Positions 13,196-36,717 of a stretch of 63,735 bases of DNA are shown piece after piece. How positions within the stretch are numbered: position 1 is the stretch's first letter; every line of letters begins with the position of its first letter. The stretch is from a virus (lineage: Duplodnaviria; Caudoviricetes): IMG/VR virus record IMGVR_UViG_3300045110_000325, positions 1-63,735 of that record. One strand, 5' to 3'. Position numbers and translations under genes: made by a program. Below the pieces are notes generated by a model. That model ran no database searches, was not told the DNA's origin, and was given only the letters and a program-made list of their open reading frames with translations.

Positions 13196-13666
13196 TCAGT
13201 CCGCCACGATCCGGATCTCGTCGGCTTGCTCGCGCTTGCGCCGGAGTTCGTACTGGCCGACTCCGATGCCATTGGCTCCGTGCTCCTCGGTGTGGATCAG
13301 GTACGCCGCCCCAGCGGGCACGGTCAGGTAGCCGACGACCTGTCCGCGGTCCACGCGAGCCCAGAGCGCTAGGCGTTGCTCGTCAGCGTGCAGCCAGTGA
13401 GTGTTTCCCGTCGCCTCGCCGGTCACGACCTGCACGCCGTCGCCGACGAGTTGCCACGTCAAGCTGCCAGGAGTCTCCGCGACGGGCCGGATGAGGATGT
13501 CGCCCTGGTGCTGCAGGCCGGTGAGGACCGGGACAGCGGCCTGGGCCTCCAGGTGGTCAGGCACATCGACGCTGACGAGGCGGAGCGCGCATTCGAAGGT
13601 GAGCATCTCTAATTTCTCCATTCTTAGTTGATGCGACGGGGCGGCGATGGACTGCGCGCCGCTCAT
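13196..13666 (-). CDS. conserved phage protein, partner of the DUF6745-like gene (start may be 13621)
   Basis: QGDILI..GEATGNTH..H.EH..I.VG.Y..RR.RE. Confidence 0.7.
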   Translation of the reverse strand: MSGAQSIAAPSHQLRMEKLEMLTFECALRLVSVDVPDHLEAQAAVPVLTGLQHQGDILIRPVAETPGSLTWQLVGDGVQVVTGEATGNTHWLHADEQRLALWARVDRGQVVGYLTVPAGAAYLIHTEEHGANGIGVGQYELRRKREQADEIRIVAD

Positions 13667-14871
13667 GTGGCACGCTCCATCAGCGCGTACTCGTCGCGTG
13701 GTATGTCCCAGGCCCAGGCTTGGGCGGAAACGGGGTCGGCGATCTCAGCGGGCACGGTCTCGCCGTACCGCCTGCGGGTGCCGTCCCGGTCGGGGCTGGC
13801 GTTGGTCATGAGCACAACCCGGACCGGCTCGCCGTAGACCTGGCGGGGGATGTCGTACAGGTCGAGGGTGTGGGGGTGGTTTGCCGGGTCTGGCGCAGAG
13901 GACACGAGCCGCATGCCAGCCTCGGCGACGAAGCGGTCCCAGCCGCGACGTTCGATCGCGGCGCGTCGGACCTCTGTGTTCTCCTCGCGGAGGATGCGCT
14001 CGGTGTCCCAGCCGTCTCCGACGACGAGATCCTGCGGGACCCGCAGACCGTGCCAGGCGTGGAGGGTGTGGCCGTCGGCCCAGGCGAGCGCGGGGCCGTC
14101 CTCGGCGTGGAGGCGGGCTTGGTCGTCGCGGCGGATGACGGCAGGCCGGTCGGTGATGACGACGGCTCCCCGCATCGGCCACCACCAGCCTGCCTCGGCG
14201 ACAGCGAGCGCGAGGGCGTCGAGGCGCTCGGAGGCCGCGATGGGGGCGGCGGGGAGCGCGCACGTGTAGATACCCAGCCAGTAGGCGTCATACCACGGGC
14301 TCAACCCGAGGTCGAGCTGGCCCCAGAGCTGGCCCCCGAGCTGGTCCCGGAGCTGGTCCCCGAGCTGGTCCCGGAGCTGGCCCCCGAGCTGGTCCCGGAG
14401 CTGGTCCCCGAGCTGGCCCCCGAGCTGGTCCCCGAGCTGGCCCCCGAGCTGGCCCCAGAGCTGGTCCCCGAGCTGGCCCCAGAGCTGGTCCCCGAGCTGG
14501 CCCCAGAGCTGGCCCCCGAGCTGGCCCCAGAGCTGGCCCCCGAGCTGGCCCCAGAGCTGGCCCCCGAGCTGGTCCCGGAGCTGGTCCCCGAGCTGGTCCC
14601 GGAGCTGGTCCCCGAGCTGGCCCCCGAGCTGGCCATTGCGCAACAGGCCGGTCGCGAAGGCACCGCCGAGCGGCGAGTCCATCCAGACGGCAAGCTGTGG
14701 CGGATCGACGCCTGCCGCGCGGTACGCCGCGGCGATGGCGGCCTCGGCTTTTGGCCTGTCGCACCGCTCCGTTGACAGGCCGACGCGCATCCAATGCTCG
14801 CGCACAGCGGAGACGCGGGCGAGATCCTCCTCTGTGAGCGTCCCAGCGTACCGCCGCCGGTCGTCGGTCAC
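13663..14871 (-). CDS. DUF6745-like protein with a tetrapeptide repeat tract
   Basis: W..DSP N-terminus; GWWWP..DRP..RLH.EDGPA..W.DG..WHG; N.EVRR.AIER.GW. Confidence 0.8.
14314..14634 (-). repeat. 27 x 12-bp coding tandem repeat (xxQL)
   Basis: Units encode [12 protein letters not shown] or WGQL. Confidence 0.95.
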
Positions 14872-15241
14872 GGCTTGCCCTCCAGACGCTCCCAGGGCGG
14901 GGTGTGCCGGCCGTCGCGGTGGTCGATGAGGCGTCGCAGCTCGGGCACGACGGGCTCGGCCGGCGCGTTGCCGCTCTTCGCGTTGTCTGCCATGCGGGTC
15001 CTCAGACTGGGTTGGCCGCGCCGCTGGGCCGCCGGGTGTCGACTGGCGGAGCGGGCTTGGACGGGTGGGGGCGGGTCTGGGTCTGGGTCTGCTTTGCCAT
15101 GTCGCGGACCACCTCCGTGATCTCGCTTGGACTCGGCGGCTCGCCGGGCGTGGCATGATCGCCGCGCCGCCTGTCCGGTGGTGTCAGCCCGCGCGGGGCC
15201 GGAGGCCGCCGTCACCCGCGCGGGCTGAGCATTCTGGCCTG

Positions 15242-33884: not shown

Positions 33885-34341
33885 GACGCCTCTCACCGTG
33901 CGGGACGCCGCAGCGTGGGCTGGCGTCACCCCATCCACCTGGCGCTCCTACGTCGCACGCGGGCAAGCCCCCGCCGCGGACGGACACCTAGGCGCGACTC
34001 CCTACTGGCACGAGTCGACCGTCCGGGCATGGCTGGACAACCGCCCAGGCCAAGGCCGCCGCACCTGGGGGCTTTGGACCGTCGAGACCGACGCCACCTA
34101 CGACCAGGCGCAATCAGCCACGGGCATCCCGGCCAACCGGTGGTCAACGGCGGGCCGGCGCGGACTGGAGCTGACCACCGGCGTGTCCGAGGCGGTCGAG
34201 GCGGCGCTCGCTCTCCGGTCCGCAGGCCGGGTCGCGTGGCTCACCCCCGGTCCCGGCAAGGTGCCGCCCGCAGACTTCGCGCTCGTGGCCGGCTACGACC
34301 GGCTGACTTGGGACGCCCGCCTCAAGGCCAGCTACACCTGA
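33877..34341 (+). CDS. AlpA/MerR-like HTH regulator
   Basis: LTVRDAAAWAGV.PSTWRSYV.RG.AP..D...P.W...TV..W...RPGQG. Confidence 0.8.
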   Translation: MPETPLTVRDAAAWAGVTPSTWRSYVARGQAPAADGHLGATPYWHESTVRAWLDNRPGQGRRTWGLWTVETDATYDQAQSATGIPANRWSTAGRRGLELTTGVSEAVEAALALRSAGRVAWLTPGPGKVPPADFALVAGYDRLTWDARLKASYT

Positions 34342-34345
34342 GCGC

Positions 34346-34864
34346 TCAGCTTCCCAACAGCCGGGTCATGATCCCGACGATCTCCTCGCCGTAAGTCGGC
34401 GACGGCGCCCACAACCCACCCAACTGCTCAACGGTCGGCGCGGAGCCGAACCGCGGCCCGCCCGGCCAGACGTAGACCGCGCGGGGGTCGGGGGAGTCGT
34501 CCGGCGAGTCGTAGCCGGCGGGGACGCGGCCGGCGTAGAGGGACAGGTGGTCGGCGTGGGCGCGCGCGCCGGTCGCCATGTCGGGGAACAACGCGTGGTC
34601 GGCTGTCGTGTCGCCGGTCGGGTTGCGCACCTTGAGGCCGCACGGGTTGTTCATCGACGGGGTGACCGCGCCGCCGAAGCGCCCCCAGCCGGTTTCCTTC
34701 GCGCATTGCGCGACCAGGACCACCGGGTCGACGCCGACGGCCAGGCCGGCAGCGGCGAGGTGCGGCAGCGCGCTGAAGAACCACGGCGAGGCGGTCGCTG
34801 GTATGTCCTCGTAGTGGATGACGTGGGCCGGCCCCGCAAGGAGGATCGAAACCGGCCGAGTCAG
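34346..34864 (-). CDS. glucosaminidase (GH73-like) domain, reached by -1 frameshift from the amidase
   Basis: G.DP.V..AQ..KETGWG.FGG...NNPCGLK, F.D...G..AH, L.G.WAPS..YG; no canonical start before the conserved core. Confidence 0.75.
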   Translation of the reverse strand: MTRPVSILLAGPAHVIHYEDIPATASPWFFSALPHLAAAGLAVGVDPVVLVAQCAKETGWGRFGGAVTPSMNNPCGLKVRNPTGDTTADHALFPDMATGARAHADHLSLYAGRVPAGYDSPDDSPDPRAVYVWPGGPRFGSAPTVEQLGGLWAPSPTYGEEIVGIMTRLLGS

Positions 34865-34870
34865 TTTCCC
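34806..34870 (-). other. -1 ribosomal frameshift signal (G_GGA_AAC, 6-nt spacer, pseudoknot)
   Basis: Heptamer 34864-34870; S1 34857-34847/34836-34826; S2 TCCTC/GAGGA. Confidence 0.75.
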
Positions 34871-35721
34871 GGGCTCGCCGGAAGCGCGGCCTTGATCTCA
34901 GTGACGGTGGCAAGGATCAGCGTGAGCGCGTCTTCCATCGCGGCGACGCGCTCGGCCAACACGGCCTGCGACTCGCCGAACTTGACGACCATGCCGCTCA
35001 ACGCGTCGGCCTTCCGGGACGCGGCGTGGGAGTTGCTCGCGGCCCACTCGGCGAGGTCGCCCATTCGGACCGCAGTGTGCCCCAACTCGGTCCTGGCCCC
35101 GGTGCCCAGCTCCTCCTCGCGGTTCCACACGTCGTTCGCGTCAGGCATGTCGGCGACCTCCAGGATCACGATCGGGGGGGCTTCGGCGGCGACCAGCGGC
35201 AGCGCCGCGCGGAGCACGGGGCCGGGGCATTCGGTGTCGCCGAAGATGGAGTGGGGGACCACGCGGGTCGCGCCCGGCGTCCGGCTGAGCGCCTTGGCCC
35301 GACACCAGCGCATCCCCTCCACCAGCGCCGGCGTGACCTGGCCGTCGTCGTTGCCGAAGACGACGAGGACGGCGTACCACTCGTCGTTCTCGCTGCCGGC
35401 GAGGTTCGGGTTGTCCTGCCCGGCGGAGCGCCGGTCGAAGGTGCGGCAGGGGTAGACGTGCGCCTGGCCGGCCACGTCGGCGACGGCCCACTGGTAGGCG
35501 ATGTCGCAGTACCCGCGGCCGCCTTCGGACCGGGGGTTCATGTGGTCGTCCTGCCAGCCCCGCAGCCTCGAGCAGACCTGCGCCTCGGTGAGGCCGAGGA
35601 GCGTCCCGGCGCTGCCGGGGTGGTGGTAGACGACGCCCCTGATCCCGGACGTGGCCATGGCGGCGCATCCCGTGCCGGCGCGGCTGGTCCAGTCGGAGCG
35701 GGTGTGAACGACGACGGTCAT
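34861..35721 (-). CDS. endolysin, N-acetylmuramoyl-L-alanine amidase (PGRP/Amidase_2) with helical C-terminal domain
   Basis: R.DW, VYHH, Q..HM..RGY.DIAY, PH....TECPG. Confidence 0.9.
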   Translation of the reverse strand: MTVVVHTRSDWTSRAGTGCAAMATSGIRGVVYHHPGSAGTLLGLTEAQVCSRLRGWQDDHMNPRSEGGRGYCDIAYQWAVADVAGQAHVYPCRTFDRRSAGQDNPNLAGSENDEWYAVLVVFGNDDGQVTPALVEGMRWCRAKALSRTPGATRVVPHSIFGDTECPGPVLRAALPLVAAEAPPIVILEVADMPDANDVWNREEELGTGARTELGHTAVRMGDLAEWAASNSHAASRKADALSGMVVKFGESQAVLAERVAAMEDALTLILATVTEIKAALPASPGN

Positions 35722-35745
35722 CGATGCCTCAACTCCTCTCGGCGG

Positions 35746-36051
35746 TCACATCGCCTGCCGTTGGATGCGGTCGAGTCCGAGCTCGGCCAGGGCGCGGACC
35801 TTCCGGCCGAACGTCCGCCGGAACGCCCACGGCGGCTTTGGGTCGGCCTTGAGGAGCCGGTCGAGGTAGGAGTGGACCGCGCCGTGGGCGTTGGAGCACA
35901 ACGGCACCCGGTTCGCCGGGATGTCAGGCTCGCCATGCCCCAAAGGCCAACAATGATGGACCTCGATCGGCACCCACTCGCGGTGCCGGTGGACGGCGCA
36001 CGCCTTCGGGGCTTTCGGGACGGTCACAGCCACAGGACCGCCGCCGCTCAC
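35746..36051 (-). CDS. HNH endonuclease
   Basis: HH.WPL..G...N.V.LC.NAH..VH. Confidence 0.75.
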   Translation of the reverse strand: MSGGGPVAVTVPKAPKACAVHRHREWVPIEVHHCWPLGHGEPDIPANRVPLCSNAHGAVHSYLDRLLKADPKPPWAFRRTFGRKVRALAELGLDRIQRQAM

Positions 36052-36386
36052 TTCGGCCGAAGCGCGAAGTACAGGCCGACGAGCACGCCGATCGCGCCGA
36101 TGACAGCGATGACCCGCGACATCGGCGACCACGACTGCTCCACCTTGTCCCGCCGCGCCTCCTCCGCGTCCTTCAACGCGGCGGCGGTGGTCACAACGGT
36201 CGCGTCCCGGGCGACAGCCTGATCGCCGAGACGCTGCACGGCCAACTTCAACCCGTGCAGCTCCTCCGCGATCTTCTCCAGGCTGCCATTGATGGCCTCA
36301 AAATGCTTGTCATGGCCTGCGAGCCGGGCTCCGATCTCCCCGGCCACAGCGCCCCGGTCATAGGCCTCCTGCGGCGTCTCGCTCAC
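36048..36386 (-). CDS. coiled-coil protein with C-terminal TM (lysis accessory)
   Basis: HDKHF..INGS; terminal hydrophobic helix. Confidence 0.65.
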   Translation of the reverse strand: MSETPQEAYDRGAVAGEIGARLAGHDKHFEAINGSLEKIAEELHGLKLAVQRLGDQAVARDATVVTTAAALKDAEEARRDKVEQSWSPMSRVIAVIGAIGVLVGLYFALRPK

Positions 36387-36387
36387 G

Positions 36388-36717
36388 TCAGCCGCCTCCG
36401 CAGGTGTCGCGGATCTCCGCGACGACCCGGTCGTTGTCACCGGTGAGCGAGCGGACCGCGTCGGCCATGCGACGCTGCCCGTCCCGGTAGCAGCCGCCGG
36501 CGACATGCCACCCCGTCGCCACGACCCTGACACCGGGGGTGGTGCAGTCGTACAGGCGGAACGCGACCGCGCCGCCGACGACCGTGCCGCAGAGAGTCAG
36601 GACCACCAGGCCGATGACCCACGCCTGCCGGCGTCTCAACCCTTGGACCGCTCCGGCGAACTCCCGTGTCGCGGCGCCGAGGCCGCTGACGGCTGTAGCC
36701 AGGTCGCGCTCAGGCAT
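36388..36717 (-). CDS. single-TM protein with Cys residues (lysis accessory)
   Basis: TM followed by DCTTPG..CY. Confidence 0.6.
   Translation of the reverse strand: MPERDLATAVSGLGAATREFAGAVQGLRRRQAWVIGLVVLTLCGTVVGGAVAFRLYDCTTPGVRVVATGWHVAGGCYRDGQRRMADAVRSLTGDNDRVVAEIRDTCGGG

Follow-up and report, generated by a model that had tools for sequence, protein, structure and literature searches.

In-frame internal translation start sites (iTSSs) have been established in the genes encoding mycobacteriophage Ms6 LysA (PMC3314691), the endolysin of phage 2638A, and the endolysins Lys170, LysIME-EF1, CD27L, CTP1L, and CS74L (PMC9430671). A screen of 3,780 endolysins predicted an iTSS in about half of them, and four were verified, including that of mycobacteriophage Pollywog (PMC9430671). 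The outcome for the two resulting chains is not uniform in that report, with a 1:5 complex in one case and no interaction in others. Here, we analyzed the endolysin gene of a Caudoviricetes virus from soil (IMG/VR record IMGVR_UViG_3300045110_000325), whose linear sequence of 63,735 bp, with a G+C content of ~70% and an estimated completeness of 77%, is called the window below. The gene (positions 34861 to 35721, minus strand) probably has a functional iTSS between its N-acetylmuramoyl-L-alanine amidase domain and its C-terminal domain (CTD), and a functional iTSS is more probable still for the family of related genes as a whole. Because endolysin iTSSs are already established and predicted to be widespread, the mechanism proposed for the window is of a known kind. 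What is new here is a predicted junction signature that runs through a family of PGRP-type actinobacterial amidases and is supported at synonymous sites; the published screen (PMC9430671) may already include relatives.

Lys170 of Enterococcus phage F170/08 and LysIME-EF1 resemble the window endolysin in having one catalytic and one C-terminal domain with an in-frame iTSS and a ribosome-binding site between them (PMC9430671, PMC7098653), and in these descriptions the free C-terminal product is identical in sequence to the full-length protein's C-terminal portion. They differ in that this product is a demonstrated cell wall-binding domain (CBD) forming a heterotetramer with the full-length chain, whereas the window CTD is a 95-amino-acid (aa) acidic segment with one long predicted helix and no assigned family, known from sequence alone. 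Their hosts are Firmicutes, in contrast to the high-G+C Actinobacteria here. The clostridial phage endolysins CTP1L, CD27L, and CS74L also combine an amidase with a CTD, and their secondary CTD product is reported to form a complex with the full-length enzyme (PMC4777826). However, they carry an Amidase_3 or Amidase_2 domain with a globular CBD fold and oligomerize via CBD-CBD faces rather than a coiled coil, and no frameshift-appended second catalytic domain has been described for them. For LysP7951 of a Streptococcus thermophilus phage, the iTSS was predicted bioinformatically, as in this study, then verified, and the 1:5 heteromer was required for activity (PMC9430671). LysP7951 has other catalytic and binding domains, and its stoichiometry was measured, whereas the window gene is known from its sequence. 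Ms6 LysA (Lysin384/Lysin241) and Pollywog LysA are likewise endolysins of actinobacteriophages, and experiments have confirmed an in-frame internal start in each (PMC3314691, PMC9430671). In both, however, the iTSS is reported to lie between two catalytic domains, the short product is itself an enzyme, and the initiation signals are described as weak, whereas the Shine-Dalgarno (SD) sequence in the window is strong and the short product would have no catalytic domain unless extended by frameshifting. The precedents named in the first-pass annotation of the window, Lys170 and CTP1L, are thus present in the literature (PMC9430671, PMC7098653, PMC4777826).

The endolysin open reading frame (ORF) encodes a full-length product of 286 aa (30.3 kDa), ends with the TGA at 34861 to 34863, and has a G+C content at third codon positions (GC3) of 0.94. 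It matches phrog_1493 ("endolysin") over residues 3 to 173. At the internal site, the minus strand reads ctGGAGGtcgccgacATG. An SD core, GGAGG (35157 to 35161, minus strand), is formed by the codons cTG GAG Gtc of the peptide L-E-V and precedes an in-frame ATG (35146 to 35148, minus strand; M192) with a spacer of 8 nucleotides (nt) counted from GGAGG or 7 nt counted from GGAGGT. The gene therefore has an internal start codon with its own candidate ribosome-binding site, in frame, between domains, and away from the gene ends (codon 192 of 286). Initiation at M192 would yield a C-terminal product (CTP) of 95 aa (34861 to 35148, minus strand; 9.9 kDa, pI 4.7), which begins with the conserved motif M-P-x-x-x-D-V-W. 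The first-pass annotation had reported a strong SD 7 nt before ATG 35148 in the endolysin frame, and the minus-strand reading bears this out; its sizes for a 95-aa CTD product and a ~267-aa CTD-glucosaminidase product (~10 and ~28 kDa) are also right.

Since GGAGG-N4-10-ATG is common in this G+C-rich window, the bare pattern proves little. It occurs 26 times, compared with 13.5 ± 3.7 times in dinucleotide shuffles, of which 1 in 100 reaches 26, and the majority of the 26 matches are real gene starts. The site stands out more clearly within its gene. Among the 17 internal start-capable codons (ATG, GTG, and TTG) of the endolysin, M192 is the only one with a strong SD: the free energy (dG) of its duplex with CACCUCCUU is -10.5 kcal/mol, compared with -6.0 for the next-best internal codon and -8.9 for the gene's own start. 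Across the window, 48 frames are likely to be coding, and we also ranked the 146 in-frame ATGs located 60 or more codons into them. The SD of M192 was the strongest and the only one at ≤-10 kcal/mol, with two ATGs reaching ≤-9 and three reaching ≤-7. The mRNA is predicted to be open at this point, as the 60 nt around the M192 ATG have the weakest folding of all 60-nt windows of the gene (-11.1 compared with a mean of -22.9 kcal/mol), and a 90-nt stretch at the site folds worse than 199 of 200 shuffles.

Relatives at the protein level share the junction. A full HMMER scan gave 437 proteins at an E value of ≤1e-3, most of which aligned only across the amidase domain; 24 distant homologues (25% to 56% identity) that extend into the CTD were used for alignment A1. 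In A1, D191 is at least 90% conserved and precedes a consensus M at position 192, from which the motif runs on as M-P-x-x-x-D-V/L-W. An acidic run (E-D-D, E-E-D-D, or Q-E-D-D) followed by an M that closes a Pro-rich linker is seen in many of the best 150 representatives; in some, V or L replaces this M, and the downstream domains vary. Other searches found few relatives or none: none of 50,697 phage records matched the 286-aa protein at 1e-5 in tblastn, a single-protein scan of viral contigs gave no relative, and a word-based protein search gave only P0002, which is 69% identical over the amidase domain and whose junction, read as protein only because the metagenome scan did not return its contig, is P-E-D-N-M. 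In one of the other proteins, P0160 (392 aa), the domain order is reversed, with a glucosaminidase followed by a PGRP-type amidase, and its C-P-G motif is followed by E-S-D-D-M and a short C-terminal region.

The junction was also analyzed at the DNA level. We fetched 63 loci from species genomes (almost all of Kribbella), 30 from a class sample of 401 genomes, 80 from IMG/VR, and 35 from metagenomes, and these four collections yielded 193 parsable amidase ORFs. The locus scans used the narrower alignments A2, A3, and A4, as A1 was too diverse. When whole ORFs were clustered by single linkage at 50% identity, most were lumped together, and clusters based on the tails were used instead; one of these holds 89 ORFs, which makes the counts conservative. 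In an unbiased scan of all in-frame ATG, GTG, and TTG codons, SDs with a dG of ≤-7 kcal/mol preceded 73% to 82% of the ATGs located 10 to 30 codons past C-P-G (weighted over 39 tail clusters) and 0% to 29% of the ATGs in the remaining internal bins. In most homologues, a predicted iTSS occupies the corresponding position, and 21 of 37 cluster representatives have a dG of ≤-9 kcal/mol there. The first-pass annotation had staked its proposal on the conservation of the SD and the Met in homologues, and an SD and a start codon are indeed conserved at the domain boundary in many distant homologues.

The nucleotides that make up the signal come from differing peptides. In the Kribbella set, the codon preceding the Glu always ends in G (TCG, CCG, GTG, or CAG), giving GGAGGA 4 to 10 nt before the ATG, unlike the neighboring Ser, Pro, and Thr codons, which are variable. 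Elsewhere, GGAGG or AGGAG arises from L-E-V (the window), E-D-D, G-G written as GGA GGN, or T-G-G-F. When 84 unique junctions were collected by a protein-level rule, the codon after the first acidic run was ATG in 41, GTG in 7, and TTG in 2; the remaining 34 had a different codon there, and several of them had an ATG or GTG 1 to 4 codons further on. The start codon itself can be exchanged: SSEDD-ATG-TPAQMQELKNF of the Kribbella set corresponds to SSEDD-GTG in locus L188, and VEDD-ATG-PYTE in L195 corresponds to VEDD-TTG-PYTQ in at least 11 loci. The background use of these codons in the homologous ORFs is 7% of Leu for TTG and 36% of Val for GTG. In seven amidases with a PG_binding-like CTD (L071, L072, L074, L093, L131, L142, and L149), an SD-like run and a start-capable codon are found just before the CTD, for example, as GGA GGA GAT GAC CCG ATG, GGA GGT GAC CCA TTG, or GGA GGC GAC GAC GTG. 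The SD and start precede these CTDs too, and therefore the boundary start is not tied to a single CTD type.

The acidic codons GAG and GAC are SD-like themselves. For this reason, the 46 codons after C-P-G in the 37 cluster representatives were reshuffled among synonyms 300 times with the protein sequence kept constant. The 21 clusters with a start-capable codon at a dG of ≤-9 kcal/mol, located at +8 to +40, compare with 9.1 ± 2.2 (maximum, 16) in the synonymous null (P ≤ 0.003), and the mean best dG was -7.56 compared with -5.34 ± 0.45 kcal/mol. Codon choice upstream of boundary Met residues, whose definition ignored the SD, pointed in the same direction. Gly was written as the rare GGA in 23 of 63 cases within the 6 codons before the boundary Met and in 37 of 249 before other internal Met residues (Fisher P = 2e-4), while for GAG the fractions were 83/94 and 130/165 (P = 0.04). 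An earlier GGA count (25 of 48), made on junctions preselected for a strong SD, was set aside as circular and replaced by this protein-defined test. The mRNA around the boundary start (60 nt) is 8.9 kcal/mol weaker in structure than the other windows of the same ORFs, lying above the median in 26 of 27 clusters, and in 21 of 27 clusters its structure is also weaker than in the synonymous null (mean, +2.8 kcal/mol; Wilcoxon P = 4e-5), with the caveat that the 27 representatives in these folding tests were picked for having an SD. At the level of the family, these synonymous-site tests support selection on the RNA.

The same tests bear on the alternative that the signal is a by-product of protein conservation, in which an acidic Pro-rich linker and the hydrophobic M, V, or L of D-M-P-x-x-x-D-V-W are kept for the protein, GAG and GAC mimic an SD, and no initiation takes place. 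It accounts for several observations that weigh against an internal start. Amino acids alone give a fairly strong SD in the synonymous nulls, and much of the SD strength of the family comes from the acidic residues (null mean, -6.6; observed, -8.3 kcal/mol). The window SD does not exceed its own null (-10.5 compared with a mean of -8.9 kcal/mol; P = 0.41), as L-E-V with the usual codons suffices; this gene alone is therefore without synonymous-site evidence. The residues following the M are conserved too, V and L are conservative substitutes for M, and their codons GTG and TTG are one-step mutants of ATG. The preference for GTG is modest, as 7 of the 10 Val codons directly after the acidic run are GTG, compared with a background of 36% (binomial P of ~0.03). 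Further points on the same side concern the sample. Start-capable codons at ≤-7 kcal/mol are present in 27 of the 37 cluster representatives and missing from the other 10; the endolysins of Streptomyces phages Andris and R4, which have a ~30% identical amidase and another CTD, lack a strong internal SD-start; and amidase-only genes exist. The closest relative, P0002, is known at the junction from its protein alone, and the loci are phylogenetically related, which the use of unique strings and tail clusters corrects only partly and roughly. We nevertheless regard the by-product explanation as quite improbable: it does not predict strong SDs in greater number than in the synonymous null, the enrichment of rare GGA before the boundary Met, or an mRNA structure that is weak beyond the null. 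Nor would it predict that the unrelated strings L-E-V, G-G, and E-D-D all give GGAGG or AGGAG or that the signal recurs ahead of nonhomologous CTD types, including the PG_binding-like ones.

A conserved SD-like stretch located exactly at the end of a folded domain would also fit a pause site, in which the stretch pairs with the 16S rRNA of the elongating ribosome and slows translation at the boundary, thus aiding the folding of the amidase, with the ATG being incidental. This reading leaves unexplained why a start-capable codon follows 4 to 10 nt later in most lineages, including those with M/V (GTG)/L (TTG) swaps, and why the mRNA has the open structure typical of initiation regions. SD-dependent pausing is moreover disputed in the literature, and we consider this possibility very remote.

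Two observations on individual relatives concern the junction region. About 60 different Kribbella species genomes (L002 to L060) carry a related amidase whose junction reads S-E-D-D-M, mostly as one copy each, which points to either a prophage widespread in this genus or an element domesticated in it. In L057, a contig of a metagenome-assembled genome, the amidase ORF ends five codons past the junction Met (…QEDEMTPHR-stop), and an ATGA stop-start overlap begins a 95-aa ORF (MKELKDFIEARTQAYA…) with homology to the usual CTD; the CTD is a separate ORF in this locus, or else the contig contains an indel or an assembly error.

The predicted anatomy of the window protein places M192 between two dissimilar parts. 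Residues 1 to 180 (35182 to 35721, minus strand) form a PGRP/T7 lysozyme-type N-acetylmuramoyl-L-alanine amidase domain, as indicated by profile comparison, Foldseek, and a model with a predicted local distance difference test (pLDDT) score of >90. The A1 profile matched PGRP structures (E value, 6e-27) and T7 lysozyme (7e-6) in the PDB, and the modeled domain matched PGRP-LB and others in Foldseek at an E value of 1e-10, with a TM-score normalized to the target of 0.78. A Pfam hmmscan with the single endolysin sequence gave no family at an E value of ≤0.1. H33, Y76, H157, T163, and C165 are invariant in A1; by their T7 lysozyme positions, we take H33, H157, and C165 to be the Zn ligands and Y76 to be the catalytic tyrosine. 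Residues 181 to 191 (35149 to 35181, minus strand; A-P-P-I-V-I-L-E-V-A-D) form a linker that is predicted to be disordered (pLDDT of <50 over residues 182 to 195) and holds the candidate ribosome-binding site. In the AlphaFold2 model, built with A1, residues 182 to 217 are disordered with a pLDDT of <50, and on this basis M192 was placed in the disordered linker; a short helix spans residues 195 to 204. The model then has a single long helix at residues 220 to 279 (34885 to 35064, minus strand; pLDDT of 70 to 90), which corresponds to ~6 heptads. Read by eye, the heptads have hydrophobic a and d positions; the a positions are L241, F248, L255, M262, I269, and I276, and the d positions are V245, Q252, V259, L266, V273, and L280. 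The helical, coiled-coil-like character that had been ascribed to the C-terminal peptide from the letters alone thus holds at the level of prediction. The CTD by itself matched no Pfam or PHROG family, a word search with it gave no stand-alone homologue, and its neighbors in the Atlas were only subthreshold and belonged to no family.

In the proposed mechanism, ribosomes would bind GGAGG in the unstructured linker-coding stretch and initiate at ATG 35148, and the endolysin gene would therefore give rise to two proteins with a common C terminus, namely, the amidase-linker-CTD protein of 286 aa and the free CTP, which would comprise one long heptad helix in addition to a short conserved segment, M-P-x-x-x-D-V-W. 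We infer, by analogy with Lys170, CTP1L/CD27L, LysIME-EF1, and LysP7951, that the free CTP could associate with the CTD of the full-length enzyme via the long helix, forming a heteromeric lysin in which C-terminal modules outnumber the catalytic heads. A complex prediction for two copies of residues 192 to 286 gave a score of 0.15 (mark, 0.42), which was counted neither for nor against such an association.

Downstream of the endolysin gene, a reading frame (34346 to 34864, minus strand) encodes a glucosaminidase (PF01832; Pfam E value of 5e-11, residues 46 to 179 of 183) in the -1 frame relative to the endolysin. No stop interrupts the frame from 34897 onward, and its first ATG, GTG, or TTG is GTG 34723, which falls inside the domain, as the Pfam domain begins 13 residues before this GTG. 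From the endolysin stop to GTG 34723, the glucosaminidase frame has a coding-type GC3 of 0.89. Directly before the stop, the endolysin frame contains the slippery heptamer G_GGA_AAC in the X_XXY_YYZ phase (34864 to 34870, minus strand; ...ccG GGA AAC TGA). It is followed after 6 nt, within the usual range of 5 to 9 nt, by an 11-bp G+C-rich hairpin (34826 to 34857, minus strand) with the 10-nt loop AUCCUCCUUG, which resembles an anti-SD. The hairpin is strong locally, and the 98-nt stretch that holds it is unexceptional compared with shuffles (z = -0.97). A GAGGA sequence ~15 nt downstream could pair with the hairpin loop as a pseudoknot. A -1 slip at the heptamer would extend the two endolysin products to 458 aa (48.2 kDa) and 267 aa (27.8 kDa).

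This arrangement resembles the -1 frameshifts of phage tail assembly chaperone genes (lambda G/GT type), in which an X_XXY_YYZ heptamer stands before the upstream stop, the downstream frame has no start of its own, and a minor, C-terminally extended product is made. The putative site in the window differs in that it is located in a lysis gene, its extension would be a whole catalytic domain, and it is not conserved in the sampled relatives. In fact, no glucosaminidase was found beside the amidase in ~210 related loci, and the frameshift is therefore without comparative support. With 4 copies in the window compared with 5.1 expected, the heptamer shows no enrichment, which also counts against frameshifting, and no report of frameshifting in endolysin genes was among the literature matches listed. 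An assembly indel at 34861 to 34897 was considered as another source of the frame change. The sequencing runs were kept as contigs, and a Logan contig of run X1, a possible source sample, is identical over 34300 to 35800 at a depth of 13, although a systematic read error could remain; run X2 gave short pieces only. Taking these observations together with the in-phase heptamer, the spacer, the downstream structure, and the coding -1 frame that lacks its own start, we see about an even chance that a putative -1 frameshift joins the glucosaminidase frame to the endolysin.

If internal initiation were combined with frameshifting, four isoforms would result, namely, amidase-CTD (30.3 kDa), CTD (9.9 kDa), amidase-CTD-glucosaminidase (48.2 kDa), and CTD-glucosaminidase (27.8 kDa), and they could coassemble via the shared coiled-coil CTD. 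The count of four depends on the -1 frameshift, and we consider the four-isoform complex unlikely. If it does form, the ratio of amidase heads to glucosaminidase heads would be set by the efficiencies of initiation and frameshifting. A functional iTSS without such a complex has only slightly less than an even chance of being correct. In one form of this reading, the glucosaminidase would be translated separately by reinitiation at a CTG in its frame (34862 to 34864), which overlaps the endolysin TGA (aaCTGAc); in another, it would not be made at all, and the CTP would act alone, for example, as a regulator or a wall anchor, without coassembly. The overlap of this CTG with the stop and the lack of the amidase-glucosaminidase arrangement in the related loci agree with this reading, as does the report of Pinto et al. 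in which the two polypeptides do not always interact. However, CTG initiates poorly and is not preceded by an SD here, and a canonical in-phase heptamer is present together with the 6-nt spacer and the 11-bp hairpin. Relatives of the window glucosaminidase are also fused in frame behind Amidase_2 in P0154, P0165, and P0168, and a lone amphipathic helix of 60 residues, as predicted by AlphaFold2, would be unlikely to be monomeric.

An endolysin is usually treated as one chain when it is annotated, expressed, or engineered. Should a free CTP be routine in actinobacterial amidase endolysins, recombinant proteins whose synthesis relies on heterologous start signals may contain their subunits in incorrect proportions. 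The junction of an acidic run and a Met would then serve as a simple annotation marker for both the domain boundary and a second product, and the role of many unannotated C-terminal regions as oligomerization or wall-binding modules would become testable. Combined with the internal start, a frameshift-appended catalytic domain, if real, would give a phage a novel means of adjusting the composition of its lytic complex from one mRNA.

The minus strand of the window carries the late genes in the order terminase, portal, a 1,360-aa ORF of tape measure size, and lysis genes. The glucosaminidase frame lies on the 3' side of the endolysin gene, and an HNH-like ORF and two small ORFs with hydrophobic segments lie on its 5' side. 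The HNH-like endonuclease ORF (35746 to 36132, minus strand; Pfam HNH E value of 0.017, under the cutoff) thus adjoins the endolysin within the lysis cassette. The 161-aa ORF at 36048 to 36533, whose 3' end it overlaps, terminates in a hydrophobic segment, and another ORF with a hydrophobic segment encodes 109 aa (36388 to 36717); these two are possible holin-like genes. Among the deep internal SD-preceded ATGs of the window, the runner-up to M192 is ATG 14175 (minus strand; dG, -9.4 kcal/mol), located inside the ORF at 13663 to 15183, and it is possibly a second internal start, giving a product of ~170 aa.

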